Positions 5,434 to 62,500 of a DNA stretch of 64,000 bases are shown here, in pieces; the first letter of the stretch is position 1, and every line of letters starts with the position of its first letter. Under the pieces are notes generated by a model. That model saw only the letters and a list, made by a program, of their open reading frames with translations, was not told the origin of the DNA and ran no database searches. This stretch comes from Lingula anatina. Taxonomy: Eukaryota > Animalia > Brachiopoda. The stretch lies in the NCBI GenBank assembly GCA_051362555.1, contig CM120640.1, positions 39,224,788 through 39,288,787 on the forward strand, in the 5' to 3' direction. Both the position numbers and the translations under genes were made by a program.

Positions 5434-6547
5434 TCATTAGATTGAAAGGAATGCAAGGCATGGTTGGGGCACCATAATCACAGACTTTGCACAATGTTGA
5501 GTTGCTTAGAAAATTGACAAACACTACCCTCTAACTGCAAAAGCATCATTTGCAAAGCATCACTATAACAAATGAAAGTTATTTTAGTTGTACTTTACAA
5601 GTAGCATGAATATCATAAATATCTGTTGTGAAATGTTCTGGCAACTAAACAATAAATGGACTGATAGCATTTGCCTCTCTGAATTAATATATTCTCACTA
5701 TGTGACTGATAATAAATACTTTTTGCCTTAAATCACAGACAACTCAAGACAGACTATTTGTCTAGATATAATCTTCAGTTTATATTCCAATGCAGAAACA
5801 AGTAAGGACAAAAACCGCTTGTTTGTCACTTAAGTACAAAACAAAATATTGTCAAACATATAACACTTATCCCTTGAAGACAGACATTATCTCAGTCCAA
5901 CCCAGCAAGCATTGAACACCTTGATCATCACACATGTATAATGACATGATACAGTACACCTATACTTTACAATGTGACAAACTAGCAAGTTCTCAAATAA
6001 AATCCTTAAGTTGGTAAATTTTACCATCTTCACATAAATGAAATTGTCTGAAAGGTTACTTTTCATGGTTTATGCATGGACACACTGAAAAAAACAATTA
6101 TGCTTTAACAGGGGAAAAAGTCATTTTACTGAAAAAAAAATTTTTTGATGCTTCATAACTTTCAAAATTTGTTGCACTTTTGATTTTCTATGTATGTTCC
6201 TTGGTTTCCTTACACCTGACCAACACTTGAGTGTTTCTTGTTCCAAAGTGTCATCAGAGGAAGTTTTTCAAATGTCACAAACCCACATCAAACAGTGACA
6301 CACCCTCTGAATGATGTCGATTGAACTTTGAGACAGCTCTTAATTGACAAACGGAGAGTGTCATATTTTTTTCGATGAAATATATAACTGAGACACAGGT
6401 GATCAACAATCTATAGAGTTGGACCTCAGCCTCTAATATTCTATTAGCAGTAAAAGTGCAAGTAGGTTATTTCACCGGCCAGACCACAGAATCTAGCGAC
6501 ACTGAATCCGAGAGTGCACTCTGTTTTTCTGCCCACATAAAACTTAC

Positions 6548-6688
6548 CAGATAAAGTGGTCCATAAATTTTAAATGAATATAAAAAACCACGAGTGCACA
6601 CATCTTTAAACGCTTGAGTACAATAAGGCGTCCAAGTATGACCTAGTTCATAACATGAACAGTTCAAAGTTTTGCTCCAGGTGGCCAT
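6548..6688 (-). CDS. TMEM135: Transmembrane protein 135, coding exon 1 (47 aa)
   Basis: MATWSKTLNCSCYELGHTWTPYC...FKIYGPLYL matches the TMEM135 N-terminus as I recall it (human ...CYEIGHTWHPSC...LKIYAPLYL). Ends at phase-0 donor CTG|GTAAGT; the ORF-track tail beyond this is intron read-through. Confidence 0.93.
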
Positions 6689-6760
6689 CTTGGAATAACT
6701 GACCTCTTGCGCATGCGTGGATATTGTGTTAACGTCCGGTCTTCTGAACCGAGCTTTGCA
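6682..6760 (-). promoter_or_regulatory. Housekeeping-type proximal promoter/5' region of TMEM135 (YY1-like and NRF1-like motifs)
   Basis: YY1-like CAAGATGGCC overlaps the ATG; NRF1-like TGCGCATGCG at 6708-6717; CpG density rises here; no obvious TATA box. Confidence 0.5.
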
Positions 6761-9700
6761 ATTTCGAAAGAAAGTTGCTGCTCAGTAATTCCTCAAAAAA
6801 GTGAATATTCAAGTCATGTTTGTAACGCATATATTTTGTGAAGTTTTAACGTTACTATTTTTATTAATTTCATAACCGTTGATTTCTTTCCATTAATATA
6901 AAACGAAATATATGGGCGAAAATAATGGGCTTATCCAGCCTACACAAACTGAAAAGGGTAGGCGTGACTTTTTTTGTGGGATGACCCTACCAAGACAAAA
7001 ATATATATACCTGTATGTATTGCCGGAAAAGGTGCTTTTTAGATTGTTTTAGGGAAGTCGTTTATTTTCATTTCGTTTAATAAATTTTGTAATTATTTAG
7101 TAGGCTAATGCCGAAAATGGTCCCAAACTCAAGAGATAAGGCCGAGGCTCCGACAATACGAATAATGCAGTGTTAGGAAAAAAATCATAATTTCTATGGG
7201 CTTTAGGTTAAACAAATGACAATACTTAATTATCATTCCAATACATGAGCCTAGGCAACACATAGTCTACGTGTAGGCCCCTAATAGCCAACTTAGCACT
7301 GTGCGTTTCTTGTGAGTCTTCGCCTCAGCTGCCTTAAAAAAAAGATCAATAGATATTAACTAGTCTACCTTTATAAGAAAAAAAACTTAATGATATACAA
7401 TAACTATTACCGATCTATTGCGTAATAAGTGGATCCGATTAAGATCATCTCCGTCGAGACTGCCAATGTGTAAACAGTGTGGACACAGGCAGGTATTGAA
7501 ACCCGAAACCCGGACAGTGCTCTTCAGTGCACTTAGCAAACAATTAAATTCATGGGATAGGAAACCTGAAACCATTGTACAACTTATGTCTTTCACCCAA
7601 ATCCATAATCAAAGTGCTACCTTAAGGATGGAACTTTGTACTTGGTGGAGACACGAGTGCTTGCTTTTAAGATTTGAATTTCACAGTCTAATGGTGCGAA
7701 GTCCGCCTGGAGAAATGAAGCGTTGGTCACTTTTGCTGTTGGTTGCATTCCGTAGGCTACTTATAAGTTACGCGGGGGCAAGAAATTTTTTTTAAAAAAT
7801 GAGAAAAAGAAATTAAATGTATGGATTACACATTATAGATACATCTGTCTTTATGCATTTAGCGAACATTATGGGCCTTTTAGGCCTACTAGTAGGCTAT
7901 AACATCTCAGTTTAAAGACCAAGACTCTGAATAAAGTCCGGTATAATTCATAAAAAAGTAGAAATAAAACAGCTCTATTTATTAATTGAAGAAAGTCATT
8001 ATTTAGCCCAATCTTCAAAGTTTACTAAAGGATAATAGACCTACAGTGAAAAGTAGAAAAAAAGTGGGCAACACCGATTTCTGTATTTAGATAACGCTAA
8101 TTAGAACGTAAATAGTCGCTACCAACCCACAATAAATACATTAGCATGAAGTAAACACTTGCCAAGTCCAGTCATACCGGTAGTCTATACAATTTGGTAG
8201 TGTCACTCTGCTAACAAGCTATCGAATTCGGTCAAACGACCAACAAAAACGTTGCACGGCTTTCATAAAACATCCATTTACAAATGTCGTTTTTTCTCCC
8301 ATCCCACGATATCGTAACGGTATTAACGAAAATTCTTTTCTTTTCTTTTCTTTCTTTCTTTCTTTCTTTTTTCAATGGGATTCCTTTCATTGGTTCAGGT
8401 AAACTACTGCGCGCTGTAAGCACCCCCTTCCAATCTTCCACGACCTTTGTTTTGAAAGGAAAATGACCGAGCAAACAGATTGGCGGGGAAGTGATTAAAA
8501 CTTTTGTTTGGCAACCCGATCGAGTACCAGTGACGAAAAGCCTAAGTAGTTTGCTTAGCTTTCTGTGTGCAAATGCAGCGCTAAATGAGGAGTGAGGGTG
8601 AACAAACATTGGACCATACTTTTCCACTCGGAGGAGAAATTGCTTATCAAGTATGAAAGAGCTTTTAGTATTCCCCCCTTCAACAACGGCGGGGGGTTTT
8701 CAGGTGCCGTTTCTCCCCATAGAGCCAATTAATACTACAACACAAGTCGAGCATGGTCTGAAGGAAAAACACAAAACGTTATTTTCCACTGTACTCTCCG
8801 CATTATGTCTAGTTTACAAATTACCCCTCTTCTAAGCACATTTACCCCATACCTATAGCTTCTCTTATTAACAATAATCACCCCAGTAATTGATAATTAG
8901 CGCCCATTTTGCGGTCTCAATTGCTGCCACCATGTGTAATTATGATTGTGTTTTTACATGTATACGGGTTCGGTAGATTTTAACCTGATTTGGTCTGGGA
9001 TACAAATCGTTGAATATTTCAAAACACCATTAACTGACGTTTAACGCTCTATTGTCCAGACAGTCTATTTGTAACCTTATCCCATTCATACTGTTAGGGT
9101 TTTTATTTCAAAGACGTTACTGATAAATGCACCGCTTCAATTGTTCTAACGATCGAAAGCAAATTAAATTCTGAAAAAATTCCTTTAAGTTATAGGTACC
9201 AGTAACTTCCCTAAGCATGCTCCCACGACTGGTGAATATTAGTTATTTTGTCCTTTGCTGTCATCTCCTCCTACCAGTTAAAAACTATATTCACATTATT
9301 CGGTCTCTCGGGAAGTGTTGCACGTTACAAGGCGTAAAATGAGAAAATCGTGCCTCAACAATCAGCAGAATGTGCCAGAGACTGTGTATGTCATCAAATG
9401 AGAATGTTTGGTAACAGTATACATTGACAAGCTGGTAAAGTTTGGAGTTAATGGTGTTAAAATGCTTCGCGTTAAAAGACGTCTTATACAACTAAGGAAA
9501 AAATATATATAAAAAAGTTAAAGTGGAGAATGAAATGAAAGGATAGATTAAACATTTCAATCCCCTCTATTTATATTGAAAGAAAAGTCATGGCGTGGCA
9601 AAAAAAAAAAGAAAAAAAAAGAAAAAATACACAAATAACTTTGAAACTCCTATTAATTTTTTTTAATTATGCTGTGTTACAAACGTGCTGGGAGAAGATG

Positions 9701-23169: not shown

Positions 23170-23510
23170 TTAGTGAGCGTTGTTGCGTTTCTGTCCTCTT
23201 GGATGCAGCATCTCCAGTGAGGATGTTAACATGTCGACAAGTTTGCCCAAGTCACTCGCAAAAGTCTCCTGGTCTCCATTATTATGATTGACCGAGCCTG
23301 GGCCAGCACTTCCAGCTGACGCACAATAGCTTTCTAAAACTGACCAGGAGCACGATTTCTTGCAGCATTCCTCTACAATGCCCCTTTTTCGCCTGGGCTG
23401 AAGTCCATCTGGGTTTGAGAGATTTGTTGCCGTGCTACTGGCCAAATCGGTATCATGGCGCTTGGAGATCAAAAACGGCAGTGCAGCTCTCTTCGACAAA
23501 AACATGGGAG
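23170..23510 (-). CDS. Insulin/IGF-like peptide A, last exon (C-peptide, A chain, 50-aa C-terminal extension)
   Basis: Acceptor CTCATTTCAG|CT fits the phase-1 donor at 30275. RRKR-GIVEECCKKSCSWSVLESYC gives the CC-x3-C-x8-C A chain. AATAAA on minus at 23009-23014. Confidence 0.93.
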
Positions 23511-26786: not shown

Positions 26787-26817
26787 GTTGTTGTTGTTGT
26801 TGTTGTTGTTGTTGTTG
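26748..26817. repeat. Compound (ATT)n-(GTT)n microsatellite
   Basis: Directly visible; produces the poly-Ile/poly-Cys in spurious ORF 26555-26839. Confidence 0.95.
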
Positions 26818-30274: not shown

Positions 30275-30437
30275 CTAACCTCTTCCCAGCTGACGGATTG
30301 TAGTTAAAACCTCTTCCGAAGCACACCAAGTCCAGAGTATCTGCTAATGATTTACCACAAAGGTTTTCTGACAGAGCTGCATGGCATAATGAGAGGACTA
30401 TTACTGTGCCTATGATGAGCGAGTAAGACTTGTACAT
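30275..30437 (-). CDS. Insulin/IGF-like peptide A, first coding exon (signal peptide and B chain)
   Basis: MYKSYSLIIGTVIVLSLCHAALS-ENLCGKSLADTLDLVCFGRGFNYNPSAGKRL, with C-x11-C and the insulin/IGF-type GRGF. Acceptor TTATTTCAG|A ATG, donor G|GTAAG (phase 1). Spliced product is 167 aa. Confidence 0.93.
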
Positions 30438-44190: not shown

Positions 44191-46958
44191 GGCTTTCTGC
44201 AAAAAGCAAAGGATGATTACTTTCATACAAATCAAATGTTATTGCTTGTTATTTTCAATTGTCCGTTTCGAAAAAAAAACTGTTCACAAAACTTCAAAAA
44301 AATTTTAAGACGTGACAAGAAAACAAAGAACGACAATTGTTAACCACGGAAATATTTCTCCAAAAAGAAAAAAACCCACCGTTTTCTTAGAATAAATGTG
44401 ACTATAAGCCTAGATCACATGTCCTATCTTTATGTCTTAAAGATAGGATATGCCGTCTGTCTGACTGAGTTCATTTTTAAATATCAAAGTTATCACACGA
44501 TAGCTGAACTAATTCAGTGCACACAGCTGATCTCGTTTCAAGATTAATTCAGGCTAGACTTTAATGGGGACTTTTAAGGGGGGGGGGGAGATACTTATGT
44601 ACATGAACCATCACAAGTTGTCACAAAATTGCCGTTGCAACGAATGATCACCAATGGCCAATAAAATATAATAATGCATTTGATTTATTAAGATGTTTAG
44701 TCTTTTTGTAGATGGCGTAATAGCCGCGATTTCAAAGTAAAAAAGTAATTTTTCTCGTTCACCATACCAGCTATACCTTTAGGCTTATGGAAGAAGACTA
44801 ACAAAGTTTCTGGACATGTGCAGTTCAGATGTGTGATATTAGATTTTTTTTTAATGTTTGTATATTTGATGGGGGTTTCAACGCAAAATATTGAAAAATA
44901 TCGGATCACAAACACAGATTTCGCTTTGAAAAAACTTTTGACTAGAAAATCAAGCTTTTGATGATAAGAAGTGTATGCGAGGACCAAACATATTTTAATC
45001 AGTTTAATATGTTGTTTTAATTCTTAAATGATTGACAGTCATTCCATTACTGGGCAATAATACTAAATTTCCTCTTTTCGAACTATTTTTCTTCAATAAA
45101 TCTTTCGCTGGTTTTATTCCTACAGATTTACGCCAAGAGAGTGCAAATAAAGTGTAATGACTTCAGTACAGAAAAACCTGCACTACTGTACTTATCCAAG
45201 TGCAGCAAGGACAGAAATAGATAATTGATGATAATGTTTAATACTTTATCAGATTTTGTTGAGTCGAGACATTCGGTACTGTTCCTACCTTTCAATTAAG
45301 CCTTCGCAGGCATTTAATACCACCCCTGGTCCGAAACGACAGCAGACAAAGCCATTAGTCGCGTGATACACCTAGAGTTCATGTCGCCAGCACCATCCCT
45401 CAGGTCGTTTTCTTACCCTAGAACAAAAAATGAATTCATCATTCAAGGACAAACAAAGGAGTTGCGTAATTTATATTTCATAATCTGAGAAGGACGTGTA
45501 TGAATTACTTTGTGACACGTTTTGCTCCCACCACGATACTCATATTTCGAAAGTTTCTGGTCAACAAGAGGGATTGGTGATCTCATTTTTTTCTCTCGAC
45601 AATTAAAGACTATCATTTTTACCATACACGCAAAGCCAGGTATATATCGGGCAGATAAACGTCCAACAAAACCTTAATTTTACATTGATATAAAATAACA
45701 CTGACATTCGCATAATTTAATACATACATGTATGGCATGAAAACATCAGTCGCTGCATTAAATGTGTTGGGCATTACCTAATCATAACAGTATTTTAGGC
45801 TTGTTCAACACAGTCAGTGCCCAGTGACTGTGCGTGTAGCATATAAATCTGCCAGCCAAAAAAAGTGGAATCCAAATAAATTAACTGCCTAACAGAGACG
45901 CCACCAAAGTAATGGAGACAACAGAAGGACGATTTAAAGCTAACTTTTACAACTATCCTATTTTTCACTGTTCTTATCATATGTGATCACGCCTAAAATT
46001 TTATCCAGAATATCAAAAAGATGCACTCACGGTTTATAATTATACATTCAGTTACGTATGACAATACGAATTAAAAGCACCGACGAAAGTTTTTTCCTTC
46101 GATTTTCTATCAAACTTTTATATATATTTTTTTTTTGTGTAATTACAACTCCCCGTCACCCCCCTCCACCCTCATCACGAAAAACAGTTTGGATATTAGA
46201 GCCATTTATACAAAGGGTTGAAACTGAGTCTGATATGCTTTAGGTGCTTCTAAGATCATATCGGTGGATACTTAAATTAATTTTGCCCCAAGTCGTATAG
46301 AAACAGTGATTTATACCCAGCACATGAAAAGAACTGGTAATTTAAACGATAGTTAGAAAGCGAAAAGATATTTTACAAGATATGATGCCTTTTGCTATGC
46401 CATTAATATTAGTCTTTCGCTATCTCAGGAAATGGTTTCTCGTTTTAACAGATAATATACTACTTGTTTCTCACCTTATCCCCCAGCAAAACGTACTGCC
46501 GAAGCTAGAAAAGGATATATATTGGTCTACATAGAAATCCTCACCGTACACTATTCAAAGACTATAGAGGCGCATACCCAGTTTGTCTACCTGCATGTAT
46601 GAGTAAGCCTTTGTCCCCACTGTTCTGTGTACAGGGCACCAGGTGGGGCGAACAGAGAGTATTTATACACCTTACATACCTTTATATTGAGAATCGATAT
46701 TTTCGAGTACGTGTTTGGCACTGGGTAGAAAGTCAACTAGGCCTACTAGGCCACTATGACCCAACACACACCACCAAATGCTAGTTTTTACTAGAATGTA
46801 CATACACCTGACTAATATGTGAAACTAAGCTAGAATGTTACAATAAATCCCTATGGTAAGCTTATAAGTTCATAAGTTCCATATAGCCGTTTAACGCACT
46901 ATCATCAGCTACAGTATACGATATAATGTCCATGGGTATTTGTGACAAGAAAACTTAC

Positions 46959-47769: not shown

Positions 47770-48036
47770 GGGAGCGTTCCCATAAATCCATCGTACTAGC
47801 TGGATCGTTCTAACTCTGCGGAGGATTTTCGCTAACTTGCATTCAGTACCAGCGGGTTAAATGTCTGACAGGCCTACTCAAGCCGCTAGGGGATAATTAA
47901 AGATAGTCAATTACCCCCCAGTTACTCAAGGGGGCGTGCCAGACAATTAAGCTGATTACACTGAAGACACTTTAGCGAGAAGCCGCGTAGAGTATGATCG
48001 AACCAGTTAGTACACTGGGTTTATGGGAACGCAGTC
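47770..48036. mobile_element. Harbinger-like MITE with long imperfect TIRs and TAA TSD
   Basis: TAA|GGGAGCGTTCCCATAAATCCATCGTACTAGCTGG ... CCAGTTAGTACACTGGGTTTATGGGAACGCAGTC|TAA. Confidence 0.7.
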
Positions 48037-53559: not shown

Positions 53560-54530
53560 ATTTCTATTGGCGATCACAAAAATTTAAGACACGTTTGCGT
53601 GATAACACGTTCATATGGTCATCAATATTAAAAGCTTGTGTGGTCCCCGCGGAAACGGAAAAGAACTGCAACGAGACGGGACGTGCTGTCCTCAAGTGAC
53701 ACCAATATATTCTGTGGTTTCTGGTCCAATCTTGGATCCAGGCCTGTGTCAATATCTCCAAATTGGTTGGTGTTGGGCCACTTCTTTGGAATGCCATCCT
53801 TAATTCGTCCCAGATATGTTTTATCCACGAGCAAAAGAGTGGATCTGGTAGATGAATCCTCACCAGTCGGGAAGTGTGAGGGGTTGCATGGTCGTGTTGT
53901 AGGCCCCAATTGTTCTGGAATAGCCCTCGAATGAATGATACCGAGTGATTTTAGAGGATGTCTCTGTACGTTGCCATTTTGGAATAGAACCACTGGTCAG
54001 AGAGTTTTAAGGCACAAAGCTTCCATACCTGGACTGTACCACCTCCAGCAACCACGGTTTCTTAGATTTTCTATAGAAACAACCGTTTTCCAAAAAGACG
54101 AAGCACCTTACTACGGCTACATGTATCACAAGGGCGCAGTTCGATTTGATTCATCAGTGAACGTTGAATGTTTCCAATGAGCCACTGTAAGGTTCCGGTT
54201 CTGCATGGGCCACCGCATTCTGTTTCCATGGTGGACTCGTTTAACTTTGGTTTTTGGCCATTCTTCTCGCCCATGTTGAAGTTGTCTTCTGTTAACGTAT
54301 CGACATTGTTTGTATTGTTTGGTTTTATCGACATTTTCGGACCAGTAGTTCTGCGGCAATGGCTCTGACAGGTTTTTCCTTTTTTCCAGCAAAATTGCGA
54401 CAATGTGAGGATTGGTGATACAGGGCATGTATAATGGCCTGGTGCTGCGCTGTAAGTGACATCTCTCCTCTGGAGAAATCTCATTACAGTTTTTCTTGAT
54501 ACCTACGCTCACTGGCAATTTTTGCATTAT
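53560..54530 (-). pseudogene. Decayed Tc1/mariner transposase fragment
   Basis: Frame-shifted minus-strand pieces in the right order: WKHSTFTDES (first D, cf. WxxVxFSDES), VLFQNGNVQRH (cf. FQQDNAxxH), IKHIWDELR...PTNLEIL..AWIQDW (cf. IEHxWxEL...PxxLxEL...EW). Confidence 0.75.
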
Positions 54531-55999
54531 TGAGGTCTACACTATGGAACACTACCATCTGGTTCCTCAAACATATGCCCGCTATGCCTGCTTTGGTTTT
54601 TTAAGGTGGTCTCACCTTTTCTAAATTTCTATTCAATATTGGCAGCTAGACAAAACAAATCTTATAGCCACAAAAAGAAACATCTGTTTACAAACCCCTA
54701 ACATCCTTGCCTTTACTTGCCGTATACTGAGTGAAATGTTCTGTTTAAATTGCAGAAAGATATTATTTGAGAGTGTGACAACCTTTTTAAGCAATGTCGT
54801 GTTTAAGCGTGTTTTAAATTGTTCTAAATACGTCACTGATAAAATTTTAATCAACTTCTGTCTAAATGATTATTGAAGTGAAAGTGATACTTTCCTTCTT
54901 TTGATTCAGTGTTTTGGCCTTTTTTCTATGAATGGTATGCGGTTGTTAATATATTCAGGACAAAATGAACGTAATACCTTTCGAGAAAACGGGTGTGCAC
55001 GGGCCAAATGGGTGGGGTTAGCGTAATTGTTTTTGCTGGCTTGTTACGTTCCACGAGCGCTGTTGACTACTTATTCCATACTGCTTTCAATTTCATTGCT
55101 GTCTATTTCAATTAATACTTGTCACTGTGGGCACTGTTTTTTGCTTGCCGAGTAGATTTGATTTGATATGCAATCACACCGAACCTACGGTATACCACGT
55201 TGTAATACAATAGAAATACTTTTTGTTTGGTTTAATCACAAAGCTGCGTGACAATATGGATATTTGATACCTCAAAGCTACCATAAAAGTAGCGATCTTT
55301 GAAGTTATTTTAGCGTCTGCTGTGATAAAAATATCACATGATACTGATTTTAATAGGCATTTCCTTGCCTATTACTTGTTTTGTCTCGCCACAAAAAGCA
55401 TTGCACTGTTGAATGATTGTACTATACGCATATCCACCCGCGCTGTGTAAAGCGTTTTATTTTCCTTTAAATGATATCTTCAAGTTGTCTTGTGGTTTAG
55501 TCCATGGCCACTTACTGCAAAAAGAAGGCATGTGATAGAATGGGCATATAAGTTCTTAAGCTTATGATATTTATAAGGTTTTATTTATTCCATTTTTTCT
55601 TTATACTTTAGTGAAGATTGAGACAGCTCAAATATGTATTACCAAGTTTTTCACTTTTTACGTAAGATCATGGCTTTTCTCCAAGTCTCAGCAAATAAAT
55701 ATTCTAAAAGAACAACGACCTTTTTCCAAAACGTTTTCCCATCCATTCCCCCTTTCTCTAGAGACGGGAATCACGTCAAAATCCACGGTATGTTAAGGTG
55801 AGTTCGGTTTCAGTTACTTAAACCAGAACCACGTTCCTCCGCCCACGCAATATGCTCAAGTATTGTTTAGGGTGGAATCAAAAAGCATTTGACCATCACC
55901 TCCATTAATGCCGAAGATATAAATATTTAGAAAGAAAATTATTTCTGCATCGTTTCAACCGAAGCAACGAGGTGCCTTACAAAAATGAATGAAATGAAA

Positions 56000-56290: not shown

Positions 56291-56440
56291 GTAATTTCTT
56301 GGTGTATTGTGTTTTTTTTTTTCAGGCCAGTAGTTTTTCTTTCAGTTTTTAACAAAATTAGCTTTACGTAAAGAGTTTTTTGAAAAAAGGAAAAGTTTTT
56401 ATGTGGAGATTTTCATTCACTTCAACTTTTTTACTTTCAG

Positions 56441-56675
56441 ATGCGATTCCTATGGGCATCAGCAAGCATAGTGCTGCTTTTTCTCATCTCTAGTTGCCAA
56501 AAAACCTCAGCCGAAAAAGTACAGAAATTCTGTGGACGCGACCTTCCAAGAGCAATGTACATGGCCTGTGGAATTGTACGAAGAAAAAGACGCAGTTTAG
56601 ACAGTTCGCTCAGTGCAAGCAGACTAACAGATTTGCATAAAGTATTGAATGTGCCCGCACCACGTTCTTTTCAAT
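56441..56675 (+). CDS. Relaxin/gonadulin-like insulin-superfamily peptide B, first coding exon (signal, B chain, start of C-peptide)
   Basis: TTTCAG|ATG; signal peptide MRFLWASASIVLLFLISSCQKTSA; B chain EKVQKFCGRDLPRAMYMACGIV (C-x11-C); RRKRR cleavage site; phase-1 donor T|GTAAGT. Confidence 0.9.
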
Positions 56676-59361
56676 GTAAGTATTTTTTAGCATGGCAATT
56701 TTTACGCGTGGACACTGAATATAGCCCAATTAAAAAGTGCTGTTGTGGCCCCATGCCCCTGGAAATGGAAAGCAGGGGGAAACTAAAAAAGAGGAAAAAA
56801 CAAACTATTTAGTTATTACTTTTTATCTAGTGGGAAATCCAACCCTATGCTCCGTGTAGAAAAAAAGATAGGGATTATGCACTTTTATTTTATAGTTAAT
56901 GGGAGATCCCACCCGATGCTCCTGGTGGAGCTACAAAAACTTTAAGGCTGAAAAAAAGAAATTGTTTAGTTTCAACTAAAATCTAAAAGGAAATCACACC
57001 CGGAGTGTCATAACCTTAAACTGAGAAAGGCCTTCACTGGGCTTAAATCACACTCGCCTCGTTCGCGGATGAACTGTGTCGTCTCTGTATCGCATTCAGA
57101 ACATAAGGTTAAACTGAAACGATTTATGATAAATCCAATGCAAAAGATGGGTACGAAGGATAAAGTGCGTGAGAGCGGAGGGCGGGGGGAAAGTGACATT
57201 TACTTGGTCAACCCTTAAAGTGAAAGGTGGCGCAATAAAACGTCGTCAAACTGGGTGCTGGAAATGGTAATATATACAGTTAATTCGAGCTCGAGAAGAT
57301 ACGCCTGTCATATATTTTCCCAGTGTTTTTAGATAATAACCTATCACAGATAACTAAAGCTGATCATTAATTTCAATATCATGATGTTCAAGGGTTTCAA
57401 AGGGAAAAGGCAGAGGTCGCCTCTTAAATGATACCACTGTTATTTGTGTGATATTTTGAATCACGCTATCAATTTATTTGGATACATCTAATGCAGCTGA
57501 TTGCGAAGTTCAAAGAGATAACAGACGGTTACGAGCAAAAGCAAAATTATGCGATGAAAATGAAGTATCATAAACCCATTAAGCGATGCCGTGAAAAAAA
57601 TTAACTGATATGTGAGCGTTTAGATTAATACAATGAAATAAGATTCCCGCTAGAATAGAATTGTCCCCTTTTGGCAGTCATTATTCTTAAACGCCTTTTG
57701 TGGTATTATCATGTACCTAAGTGTAGGAGTGCTTTGATGTTAGAAAATGTTCCTTTGAAATATACAAGCACCCATCATTATGATTTATTTGTTTCGTTGC
57801 TACTTCAAACAGTCGAATTATGTACGTCAGTCATAGCATAAACGTCATGAAAACATAAACTTTACTAAATATTTTACGGTTGTTACAAAGTGACCATAAC
57901 GTATACGAGACATGAAATGGCAAACCCACTTTTACATTACAAATTATTTATAGTAACAAGCGTTTGTCTTTTTATAAACATCTTTCATTTTCCGACGACA
58001 ATATTTCATAACACTTGAAGCACTAAACGCCCGCGATCAGACGACTACCAGGGGCAATCTGTCAAAACCGCACACTATGCGCTTTTGCTTTTTTAACCTA
58101 TCACTTTATCATTATCGTCTAGACTGGCTGAAAACGAATGCTAAAACAGTTCATTGGCTTAGAATTGGACTTGTTGAACTGAAGTCAATATAATTCAAGA
58201 TCAAGGAGGGCAAAATGTTGTTTTTTTTAACGTTGAAGGCATTTCATCAAAACAATAGAGGATGTTCGTTTTTATTATTGCGCCAGGCTTTGATCCAAAT
58301 AGAAATCTTAACGAGTATATCAAGAGGAAAAAAATAACAGACAGCAATAATTTGATATTAAACTGCCAGTAATCCCAATGTTATCTAATCACAATGGATT
58401 GACAAACAAAGAAAAAAGAAATGGTAGATAATTCAATATTTAAATACAATTTTGGGCGGCAATCGATGAGCACAGTAAAACACTCCAATAAGGTCACTAT
58501 AGATATTTCTCTAGAAATTTCCATGAAGTCTGATTAACAAAGTGTTTAATGAACTCCGACTGACCAGACTTTTGTGACAGTTGTGTATAGCGACGCCCAT
58601 ACAGGCATTTTTGACATGCTGTTTGACTTAAAACATGTGTTACGAAATTTGCTAACAATCACCGTGAAAGTTGAGAGGGCATCAAACGACAGGGTTATAA
58701 TTTCAGGATCCTGGGAATACGGTCTTGACATATGAAATTTAAGTTTAAACAAATTGCATTCAATGTCAACAGCAAAAAAAGATACGCCCTTCTTGTTGAG
58801 ATTTTAAAGCTTATTATTTTTAGACAATAGGTTGAGTTACAATGTAAATTGAATGCAAGTTTTGTTTTTAAAGTGATGTCAAATCTTCCCAAACACGTTG
58901 ATATAACGCATATTTCTGCTAAATGAATTGCTTTGTTTCCTCTAAATGAAATCAGCCGCTGTTTAAGTCGATACACCTCGATATTAGGCCTATTTATGAA
59001 TTTGGAAGATATCTGATATTATCGATTTTATGAAAATGAAGTACAAATAATGAAAGGAATTTTTAATGATAATGTTGTCAACCAAAAGACTACTCCTTTT
59101 TTTTCGAGCGTACGCGCATGAGATTTCTTGAGATTGTTTAGTGAATTTTTACTGAAACACATTCTTTACAATTGTAAAGAAAGATAATGAAAGAAACAGG
59201 TCGTTTAACATATAATCATCCATATGTAGGTCTACTTAGTCTAGCTTCTTATAGGCCTACATTCTTGAAATAATAGCCAGCATCGCACGTTAACGAAAGT
59301 TTTGCAATACTACGTGCAGCATAAAGAAGTATTTTCTAATGTTTTTTTTCTTTCTTTTCAG

Positions 59362-59597
59362 TAATGAATCTCTTCTATCCATCCGCACTGGATGCTATTG
59401 TTTCTTCCAAGACTCTGACTACGGAGTCGGTTCAACGTCGCTTGCTTCGCACTTCTATTCTTAACAAGGCAAGGACAGAAATATCACGGACGGTTAAAAC
59501 CCCCTTATTTACCAGGCGTTCAACGCCTCTTCATGTTGTCGCCAATCTGTGTTGCAAATACGGTTGCACTGTAGAGGATCTGGAAGGAGTTTGCTAG
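59362..59597 (+). CDS. Relaxin/gonadulin-like peptide B, last exon (C-peptide and A chain)
   Basis: Long polypyrimidine acceptor ...CTTTTCAG|TA completes the phase-1 codon. RR-STPLHVVANLCCKYGCTVEDLEGVC-stop gives CC-x3-C-x8-C. Spliced product is 156 aa; AATAAA at 60047 and 60312. Confidence 0.9.
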
Positions 59598-62500
59598 CAA
59601 TTTAAGACGTTACAGTGATGCTGTATAAACCACAGTGGCTCGAAAAGTTTCAAACGATGCCTTCATCGTTTACGACGACCAACCCACGGTACTTATAAAT
59701 TACGACATCTCGTTGCTGCTTTTGATGGAAAGGACGGGAAAGAAGAAGTCACAGAACGCGGATTTATTTTCCAAAGATAAGACAAAATTGCATATAAGAG
59801 ACAAATCAAGATTAAACCTTGTAAAAGCTCATTCAAGTGAACGATTTTTTTCACACTGTCAAAAAAGCCCCAGGTGCAACCTTATTTCGAGTTCTGTAAC
59901 TCGTACTTTTGTTATTTATAGTAGTCTATTGATGAGGCGACTCCTTTAAGCTGCCGTAGAATGGTTTTCATATTTTTCTTTCAGTGGATACGAGCCAAAG
60001 CATTTGTGAAAAGTAGAGAACCTACGAATAATGTGTCATTTAAACTAATAAAAACTAGGCAAGGACATAAAAAGCCTGTAAATTATGTATCTCTGTGATT
60101 TGTTCCATCAAATCACACTTCGATCTCAAGGTTCCCTTTCAAACCGGAACAGCACAAGACTTAACGGGAGACAAAGATCAAATTTACCTAAATATTATTT
60201 ATTTTAATGAATGCATTAATATCACAAAAATGTTTCGCAGAAAATAATGTGTTTTCCTAATGCATAACTAGTATTGATGTATGCGACATGTTTGTACTTA
60301 ATTTATTGATCAATAAATGTTGCTTAGCATTTATTTATGAGAGAGCAGGTCTCTCTCTTGTAATGTAGGAAGTAGTTGCCGAAGGCATTTTTTGGATTGT
60401 ACTTTCAGCTTAGATAGATAGATGAAGCTTGCGCTCAGTCTATAAAGTAGGTGACTCTAGCTTTATTGTTACAGTGTATTTCAATAAAAGAAATAAAGAT
60501 TCTTCTTATATTCTCAGTTTAAGACATGTGTTCGTGCTTTTACACAAGTAACACGTGCAATAAGAAAATATTAAACATGTGTCGCCTCTAAAAAACCAGA
60601 CCGATGAATAGTTTTGGCAGTTATCGTTTGAAGTTTAAATATTTCACAATAACTGAGATACTTATTCAAAAATAGACTTGCAGAAAACACAAATGGCACG
60701 TTTTCTAGACTAAACACTTATATAGAAAACATTTAACCTTAATTTCATGCTATGTTCGTGCCAACAGCTTCCAACATTCAATTTTTGTGCTCACAGATCG
60801 ACTAATACAGCAGCTGCAATATCAAATATTTATCTTAAGTCATTTTGCGATATCTTTAAACAACAACAAAAAAGTGTGCCAACTTGCGGTGTGAAATTAA
60901 GTAGTGGCTAAGTCCATGTCACCTTCCTGAAAGAGGACCGTCTGAGCACTGGAATATGAGACGGTTAAACAATTTTTACACTTTAATTCCAATATTAAAC
61001 CTCAGCCCATTTCAATTGTAATGATGCCCAGCACAGGCCCAGAACCATCAAAATAAACATAATCCATATTCATCACCTGTAACAACAAAATAATGAGAAA
61101 AGGAACTTTAGAATATTTGAAACCCGTTTAACGAAGGCAAAATGCGATCGATGTATAAAGGAAATAAAAAAACAACGATAATGTTAACGCATTGTGATAT
61201 GTTGTCACCTCTAGTGCAATCTGAAAGTGATGGTTCGTTGCTGCGCCATACATGGCAGATTTGAAGGGCGTCATGGTTTTATAAAAGAATCTTTTCATTA
61301 AAGAAGTCCGATATCAGCAATGTTCATAACATACCACACGCATAGGAAAAACTTTAAAATATTTGGTTGCATTTTAATTAATTAGGTTGAGTTTTATGTC
61401 TGTAATTCAGATACTTGGGGCCATCATATGTATGATGGGTCTTATCTCCATGTTTAAATTGTACATACATGTAACTCAGGATCTTTTATTTTGCATCGTT
61501 TATCGAAAGTTTACTATGATTTCAAAGGGTCTGGACGAGCAGGATATCTCATTTTATACAACCCGCTAGAGCTAAAATTTGCAACGCCTTAAAACATTTT
61601 TAAATGATAAGATTCGAGCCGACAGTTTAAATGTTTAGGCACACTAGGTTGCTTTTTCTATAATTATATTTAGTCTGGTGCAAAACTACACAGCGGACTT
61701 GGGTTTACGCTATGTAAGAGTACTTGCTATAATAAACATGCTCGTGCGGAGCCCCCGTGCAGTGCCTCCCATTTTTGCTAATATTACATCGTGTTCCTGA
61801 CAACACCTACACGTACGTCGCGCAACGTTAAACTTCTGACTCATACATCTGGGTGAGAATACCGGTTCTTCTGTTTGAAATCCAGCTGGGTACTTAACGA
61901 TTAGATGTAAAAGATAGCGTGCTTTTCAAAACTTCGAAAGGTGATATTTCTGTGAACTTTTGGGAGATGTCACTGAAAAGACCGCCTCTAGATTTGAGAT
62001 GGTGAAAGTAAACAGTAAATAAATATACCCACTGACAAACAGTCCACATATTTCTCCTGATATTTTCTAATTGGAATATACTAAAAACAAATTCTATCGT
62101 CTAAGCTAATTTGCCAGCTCTCATGCACGCCCTCGGCCATCAGTTCGTTGATAAAAACCTAGCTCTACAAAGTATTATACATACGTCTTCGTGCACACGA
62201 CTGACCAGTTATTAAGATGACCTGAAGTGACCCCTCAGTAAATGTGTTAGATGAGGTCACCCCTCGATCAAACTAACCAATGTCTTGTCACTAACTAAGT
62301 TTAAAGGCAAAAAAATATGGAGCAAAAACTTTTCAGAAATTCCTGCAGGTGCGCATCGCATCATTTGATTTCTAAAATCAGAGCAAACGTTCACTGGATA
62401 CTTATTTATGCCTTAAGGGAAATGAACTAAAGCTGCAATCATATTTCAATTAATGTCCATTCTATATGTGTCAGAGCCCATCTTAGAAATCATATCCCCA

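Follow-up and report, generated by a model that had tools for sequence, protein, structure and literature searches.

The window analysed here, a stretch of Lingula anatina DNA considered over its full 64 kb, contains a candidate hormone gene with two coding exons, a gene of the insulin/IGF type in divergent orientation, and several other genes and elements (Table 1).

Table 1. Features of the window in order of position.
Feature	Position	Strand	Remarks
TMEM135-like exon	6470-6781	-	Pfam PF15982, E 3e-13
Frizzled-4, intronless, about 590 aa	14804-16576	-	Best named relatives: nemertean 68%, annelid 66%
Insulin/IGF-type gene, coding exon 2	23170..23510	-	Pfam Insulin, E 2.4e-9; GIVEECC; 50-residue C-terminal extension
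Insulin/IGF-type gene, coding exon 1	30275..30437	-	Pfam Insulin, E 6e-5
Expressed gene, 505-codon open frame, spliced upstream exons	42724-about 47000	-	RNA joints
Short element, likely a dispersed repeat	47770-47980		Many loose-ended RNA reads in 4/4 runs
Broken frames, possible Tc1/mariner transposase remnant	53567-54536	-	By eye, on appearance only
Hormone gene, likely end of 5' UTR intron	56415..56440	+	Pyrimidine tract and AG abutting the ATG
Hormone gene, coding exon 1	56441..56675	+	235 nt, ends in phase 1; encodes signal peptide, B chain, a basic cleavage site and the first part of the C peptide
Predicted signal peptide	56441..56512	+	Residues 1 to about 24; cleavage site by eye
Predicted B chain	56513..56578	+	Residues 25-46, Cys31 and Cys43
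Basic cleavage cluster after B chain	56579..56593	+	RRKRR, from sequence
Inferred phase-1 intron in C peptide	56676..59361	+	2686 nt, GT..AG
Hormone gene, coding exon 2	59362..59597	+	Remaining C peptide, RR site, A chain; stop at 59595-59597
Cleavage site before A chain	59514-59519	+	RR, from sequence
Predicted A chain	59520..59594	+	Residues 132-156, CC-3x-C-8x-C, last residue Cys

Frizzled-4 is followed, 8 kb downstream, by the TMEM135-like exon. The human genome also has FZD4 and TMEM135 side by side, and this would be an old gene pairing. The expressed gene with the 505-codon frame shows RNA joints at 44196/45289 in all four of four runs and at 45416/46958 in three of them, and Pfam gives it a weak hint of a beta-mannosyltransferase (E 0.05). 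The broken frames at 53567-54536 resemble by eye the remnant of a Tc1/mariner transposase; a Pfam scan of two of these frames gave no match. The gene on the reverse strand at 23-30 kb belongs to the insulin/IGF type, given its GIVEECC motif and its 50-residue extension. Its product of 167 aa is identical, letter for letter by eye, to the published Lingula anatina entry comp152136 (PMC8557429). The match marks the host as a lingulid brachiopod, very likely L. anatina, and led to the rejection of a mollusc host. It agrees with the earlier note on this DNA, which had taken the host for a probable lophotrochozoan from the letters alone.

Translation of the hormone gene starts at the ATG at 56441. 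An in-phase donor after 56675 and an acceptor before 59362 allow its two exons to be joined (by script) into an open frame for a 156-aa precursor with six mature cysteines, as had first been read. The donor is the sole GTAAGT among the 10 GT-purine sites listed; the acceptor is preceded by pyrimidines at 17 of 18 bases and is the best of the 10 AG sites between 59300 and 59540, three of which, this one included, are phase-compatible for exon 2. Such genomic signals predict the 56675/59362 junction. The intron matches in position and phase those of relaxin/Dilp8 genes and also those of other insulin-family genes. The best support for joining the two exons comes from the relatives considered below, in which both chains are matched by one transcribed precursor.

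Cysteines occupy residues 19, 31, 43, 142, 143, 147 and 156 of the precursor. Six lie in the B and A chains and one, passed over in the first reading, in the predicted signal peptide, whose hydropathy peaks at 2.87 in the segment starting at residue 9. The A-chain spacing CC-3x-C-8x-C together with the two B-chain cysteines constitutes the signature of the insulin/relaxin superfamily (PMC12702675), and genomic signals indicate the superfamily layout of signal peptide, B-C-A order, basic sites and a phase-1 intron in the C peptide. Re-reading of the sequence returned the same B- and A-chain motifs as before: the A chain stops on its last cysteine and has no GIV start, and a glycine precedes its third cysteine. 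Dinucleotide shuffling of the window, repeated 300 times, never produced the relaxin-type A motif; the B-chain RxxxR motif turned up in two shuffles and the A signature followed by a stop in one. These patterns were composed after the gene had been seen, and the null is a rough, indicative one. With the exons scanned singly, Pfam Insulin reached E 0.13 on exon 1 (13.7 bits, against a PF00049 cut-off of 23) and gave no match on exon 2. The ESM Atlas provided insulin-family leads only, at 0.87 and 0.91, the latter being the best match for exon 1 and a cluster with Insulin in 23% of its members. A third insulin signature in the window, near 26,790, was read as a poly-Cys repeat frame.

Expression was surveyed in eight of nine RNA runs from the same species (X6 was left out, and tissues are not given), with 6-30% of each being read. 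Few reads fell near the locus in these samples, and none spanned the 56675/59362 junction or the joint of the 5' UTR intron before 56441. Run X7 has about 2-fold depth on exon 1 and none on exon 2, while in run X8 traces of signal are confined to intron bins and the last part of exon 2. In run X9, 5-6 reads pass the donor into the intron and 25 of 30 bins are covered, which suggests unspliced RNA or DNA. Run X2, in which the 42.7-47 kb gene stands at about 15-fold with spliced joints, has zero depth on exon 1 and on the A-chain part of exon 2. The hormone gene is weakly expressed at most in the sampled RNA runs. Hormones of this kind usually show low, tissue-restricted expression. Downstream of the gene, at 60144-61298, RNA depth rises to about 5-fold in X7; this could represent an extended 3' UTR or the tail of a different transcript.

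The zero count of junction reads speaks for a silent or decaying copy, or for two exons spliced otherwise than proposed. So do the absence of the peptide from the three transcriptome-derived Lingula insulin-like precursors of Thiel et al. 2021 (PMC8557429) and the failure to find a full-length copy in a set of 5.8 billion proteins. In that set exon 1 had 144 candidates among proteins of 138-2000 aa, none of them at E 10 or better, and the B-chain region had no candidate among proteins of 78-249 aa; exon 2, compared with 1.84 billion representatives, had no true relative among its two matches, which are attributable to chance (long repetitive proteins aligned outside the cysteine motif). Since the protein searches missed the published relatives too, they are weak evidence of absence. 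Moreover, the frames are open, the splice sites are strong and in phase, none of the six cysteines or of the cleavage sites has been lost, and for both chains there are matching transcribed relatives in other brachiopods and in nemerteans (PMC8557429). A silent or differently spliced locus is thus quite improbable, and the gene is very probably real and functional.

Compared with the PDB, the A chain gave eight matches at E 10 or better, of which seven belong to the relaxin family (relaxin-3, INSL5, relaxin or INSL3; E 0.055-0.52) and one is a viral insulin-like peptide; insulin and IGF A chains are absent from these eight. The A chain of the neighbouring gene, used as a control, gave the opposite outcome, with 34 of 34 matches to insulin, IGF or DILP and 0 of 34 to the relaxin family, so that the comparison does discriminate. 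For the B chain the top two matches are relaxin B chains, with 18.4 and 18.1 bits, and insulin B chains come next with 17.2. Every one of these scores is weak (E above 0.01), and for the B chain relaxin leads insulin by only about 1 bit. Weak scores are to be expected with queries of 25 residues.

A single phase-1 intron interrupts the gene, a phase-2 intron is absent, and the B chain stands straight behind the signal peptide. Feng et al. 2025 (PMC11863921) use this layout to tell genes of relaxin/Dilp8 type from those of dILP7 type. Insulin-type genes have it too, and it sets the Lingula gene apart from dILP7 only. The dILP7 type was discarded for want of the phase-2 intron and of a spacer between signal peptide and B chain. 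Neither of two dILP7 motifs tested (conserved Trp motifs) has a match in the window, and no dILP7-type gene was found within its 64 kb. Molluscan insulin-related peptides (MIPs) have eight cysteines and an extra disulfide; this class was set aside on the six mature cysteines and the brachiopod host. The insulin/IGF type was likewise rejected, as the A chain has neither the GIV start nor the IGF-type C-terminal extension, both of which are present in the neighbour. The A-chain matches, the gene layout and the cysteine count uphold the placement made by the earlier note, with relaxin/Dilp8 rather than with insulin, MIP or dILP7, and on these sequence characters the peptide can be assigned to the relaxin/Dilp8 type (gonadulin, RGP) with good confidence.

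The cassette RxxxRxx(I/V), on which the first reading had laid weight, is present only in part. Both arginines are in place (Arg33 and Arg37), but the last position is Tyr40, where relaxin-1 to -3 hold Ile or Val (PMC12702675). Vertebrate relaxin-1/2/3, INSL3 and INSL5 supply the best PDB matches for both chains and share the two cassette arginines; the Lingula peptide differs from them in the terminal tyrosine and in a proline inside the B helix. Tyrosine occurs at the same position in insulin and in starfish RGP1. Since RGP1 activates RXFP/LGR3 though it has neither cassette arginine, the cassette is weak class evidence, being neither complete here nor needed.

The tyrosine shared with insulin and the narrow B-chain margin would also fit a shortened, IGF-derived peptide whose likeness to relaxin is convergent and whose signal passes through the insulin receptor tyrosine kinase or through a receptor of GRL101 type. 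The B helix of Drosophila Dilp3, which is of insulin type, likewise carries Arg and Pro at its first positions; GRL101 accounts for five of the eight listed Lingula LGRs (PMC11863921); and Veenstra 2021 argued for such an origin of echinoderm GSS. However, this explanation is at odds with the missing GIV start and with the absence of insulin and IGF from the A-chain matches, and the idea of GSS signalling through a kinase is contradicted by receptor assays in two starfish. It seems improbable, although less so than a silent copy.

Close relatives of the Lingula peptide exist among published insulin-like peptides from five nemertean species (Notospermus g9929, Cerebratulus, Baseodiscus, Lineus ruber and Lineus lacteus) and three other brachiopods (Novocrania, Terebratalia and Laqueus). 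Thiel et al. 2021 (PMC8557429) file them in their supplement solely as insulin-like peptides, without class or receptor; no relative was seen among the eight phoronid entries of its insulin-like section. Identity was counted by eye at 17 positions of the B chain and 23 of the A chain and amounts to 14/17 and 13/23 for Notospermus, 9/17 and 12/23 for Novocrania, and 8/17 and 10/23 for Terebratalia. The group has in common the six-cysteine layout, the proline and second arginine in the B helix, Pro-Leu near the start of the A chain, the glycine before its third cysteine and an end on the last cysteine, whereas the Lingula precursor (156 aa) and its C peptide are longer. Judged by these likenesses, the nemertean and brachiopod peptides are probable orthologues.

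A more distant relative is the precursor of the annelid Owenia fusiformis, which has been placed in the relaxin/Dilp8 clade (Feng et al. 2025, PMC11863921). Its identity to the Lingula peptide is modest (7/17 and 7/23 by eye), and the neighbouring insulin/IGF-type gene, with four identical positions in the B chain, has as many in the A chain (7/23). The main route linking the two passes through Terebratalia, whose B chain is like that of Owenia at 9/14 positions. The Owenia gene shares with the Lingula gene a single phase-1 intron, a B chain right behind the signal peptide, Arg and Pro at equal B-chain positions and an LGR3 in the genome; it differs in that Lys takes the place of the second Arg, the precursor is 247 aa long and a single residue follows the last cysteine. 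In the same study one gene of the nemertean Lineus longissimus is labelled RLP; neither of its two Lingula precursors is so labelled, and one of these could be the gene described here. With an annelid in the published clade, a nemertean RLP and near-orthologues in the 2021 supplement, this class is better documented in lophotrochozoans than the earlier note supposed. A literature search, with most subscription journals outside its scope, turned up no publication in which a Lingula relaxin-like peptide is named.

The start codons of the hormone gene and the insulin/IGF-type gene are separated by 26,004 bases, an interval that contains at least one expressed gene. This proximity to an IGF-type gene (26 kb, divergent) is of the kind known for gonadulins: IGF and gonadulin genes adjoin in several arthropods (Veenstra, PMC7357564), and their linkage has been described for arthropods and ambulacrarians (Veenstra, PMC7357564, PMC8286064). 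Lingula is not mentioned in the text of these synteny papers, and linkage of this type is now seen in a spiralian as well. The Lingula peptide would share the published clade and the receptor type with arthropod gonadulin and Drosophila Dilp8, and its gene likewise has one of IGF type nearby. In contrast, gonadulins are poorly conserved in sequence (PMC7357564), while the brachiopod-nemertean group is well conserved.

The ligand class had been associated with leucine-rich receptors of the LGR3 kind, and an LGR3 orthologue is indeed present for Lingula anatina in the table of Feng et al. 2025 (PMC11863921). The eight Lingula LGRs listed comprise one LGR3, no LGR4, five GRL101, one bursicon receptor and one thyrostimulin receptor, which makes LGR3 the only listed Lingula receptor of relaxin type; Owenia and Lineus likewise have LGR3. 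As a separate observation, LGR4 is missing from those eight receptors (PMC11863921) and dILP7-type peptides from the brachiopod insulin-like precursors listed there (PMC8557429); the dILP7-LGR4 pair may have been lost in brachiopods.

Starfish offer a functional parallel, in that RGP1 and RGP2 (gonad-stimulating substance, GSS) activate RXFP/LGR3 and not LGR4. They resemble the Lingula peptide in precursor layout and in an A chain ending on Cys, and RGP1 also in Ala-x-Tyr before the second B-chain cysteine. They differ in lacking both cassette arginines, and for them a receptor and an effect on spawning have been demonstrated, whereas the Lingula peptide is known from its gene. We infer splicing, secretion, processing to a heterodimer, LGR3 binding and a rise in cAMP. 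The prohormone would be secreted after removal of the signal peptide, cleavage at RRKRR and RR would free a B chain of 22 residues and an A chain of 25, and three disulfides would join them into a heterodimer able to activate Lingula RXFP/LGR3 and to raise cAMP in target cells. As far as sequence can indicate, the peptide is likely to be the LGR3 ligand of Lingula.

Its most likely role, to judge from the analogous starfish RGP and fly Dilp8, would be reproductive, in gamete maturation or release. Relaxin-type signalling has reproductive roles in adult flies and starfish, and likewise in mammals (PMC11863921), and arthropod gonadulins are produced by gonads where tested (PMC7357564). Both points argue against a main function of the same ligand and LGR3 as a growth or tissue-state signal to the nervous system, in the manner of larval Dilp8. 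Such a function would accord with the regulation of growth and maturation by Dilp8-LGR3 in Drosophila and with the occurrence of related precursors in nemertean and brachiopod transcriptomes (PMC8557429), but is considered unlikely; a mainly reproductive role appears, by analogy, somewhat better than an even bet. In Lingula, oocyte maturation can be induced by dibutyryl-cAMP injected into the gonad, with 20-70% success (PMC13121700). This result fits the proposed pathway; since rising cAMP directly triggers maturation in oocytes of many invertebrates (PMC7290932), it is not specific to the hormone. For the account as a whole, that of a Lingula relaxin/Dilp8-type prohormone which is likely an LGR3 agonist and most likely reproductive, a probability of about 0.55 seems appropriate.

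The relaxin/Dilp8 family is already known and has published spiralian members. Four points appear to be new: the gene in Lingula, the way it suits a receptor that has had no known ligand, its membership of a peptide group conserved between brachiopods and nemerteans, and its position near a gene of IGF type. In several invertebrate phyla LGR3 is an orphan receptor, and a part in spawning control has been suggested for it (Feng et al. 2025, PMC11863921). The peptide, with about 47 residues in two chains, is a concrete candidate ligand for the LGR3 of Lingula, which at present is made to spawn with dibutyryl-cAMP (PMC13121700), and it unites a conserved group of brachiopod and nemertean peptides so far filed as insulin-like.

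It is tempting, if doubtful, to see in this peptide the gonadotropin of lingulid brachiopods. In work on Glottidia by Freeman in 1994, a protease-sensitive factor of the lophophore reportedly acts on follicle cells, where cAMP leads to release of a maturation-inducing substance, and the gonadotropin reading rests on this study. If it is true, Spiralia would share with starfish a cascade that leads from a relaxin-type peptide through LGR3 and follicle cAMP to a maturation substance, and the origin of this cascade would date to the earliest bilaterians; the neighbouring IGF-type gene would then be what a spiralian has kept of an ancestral IGF-gonadulin-dILP7 cluster.
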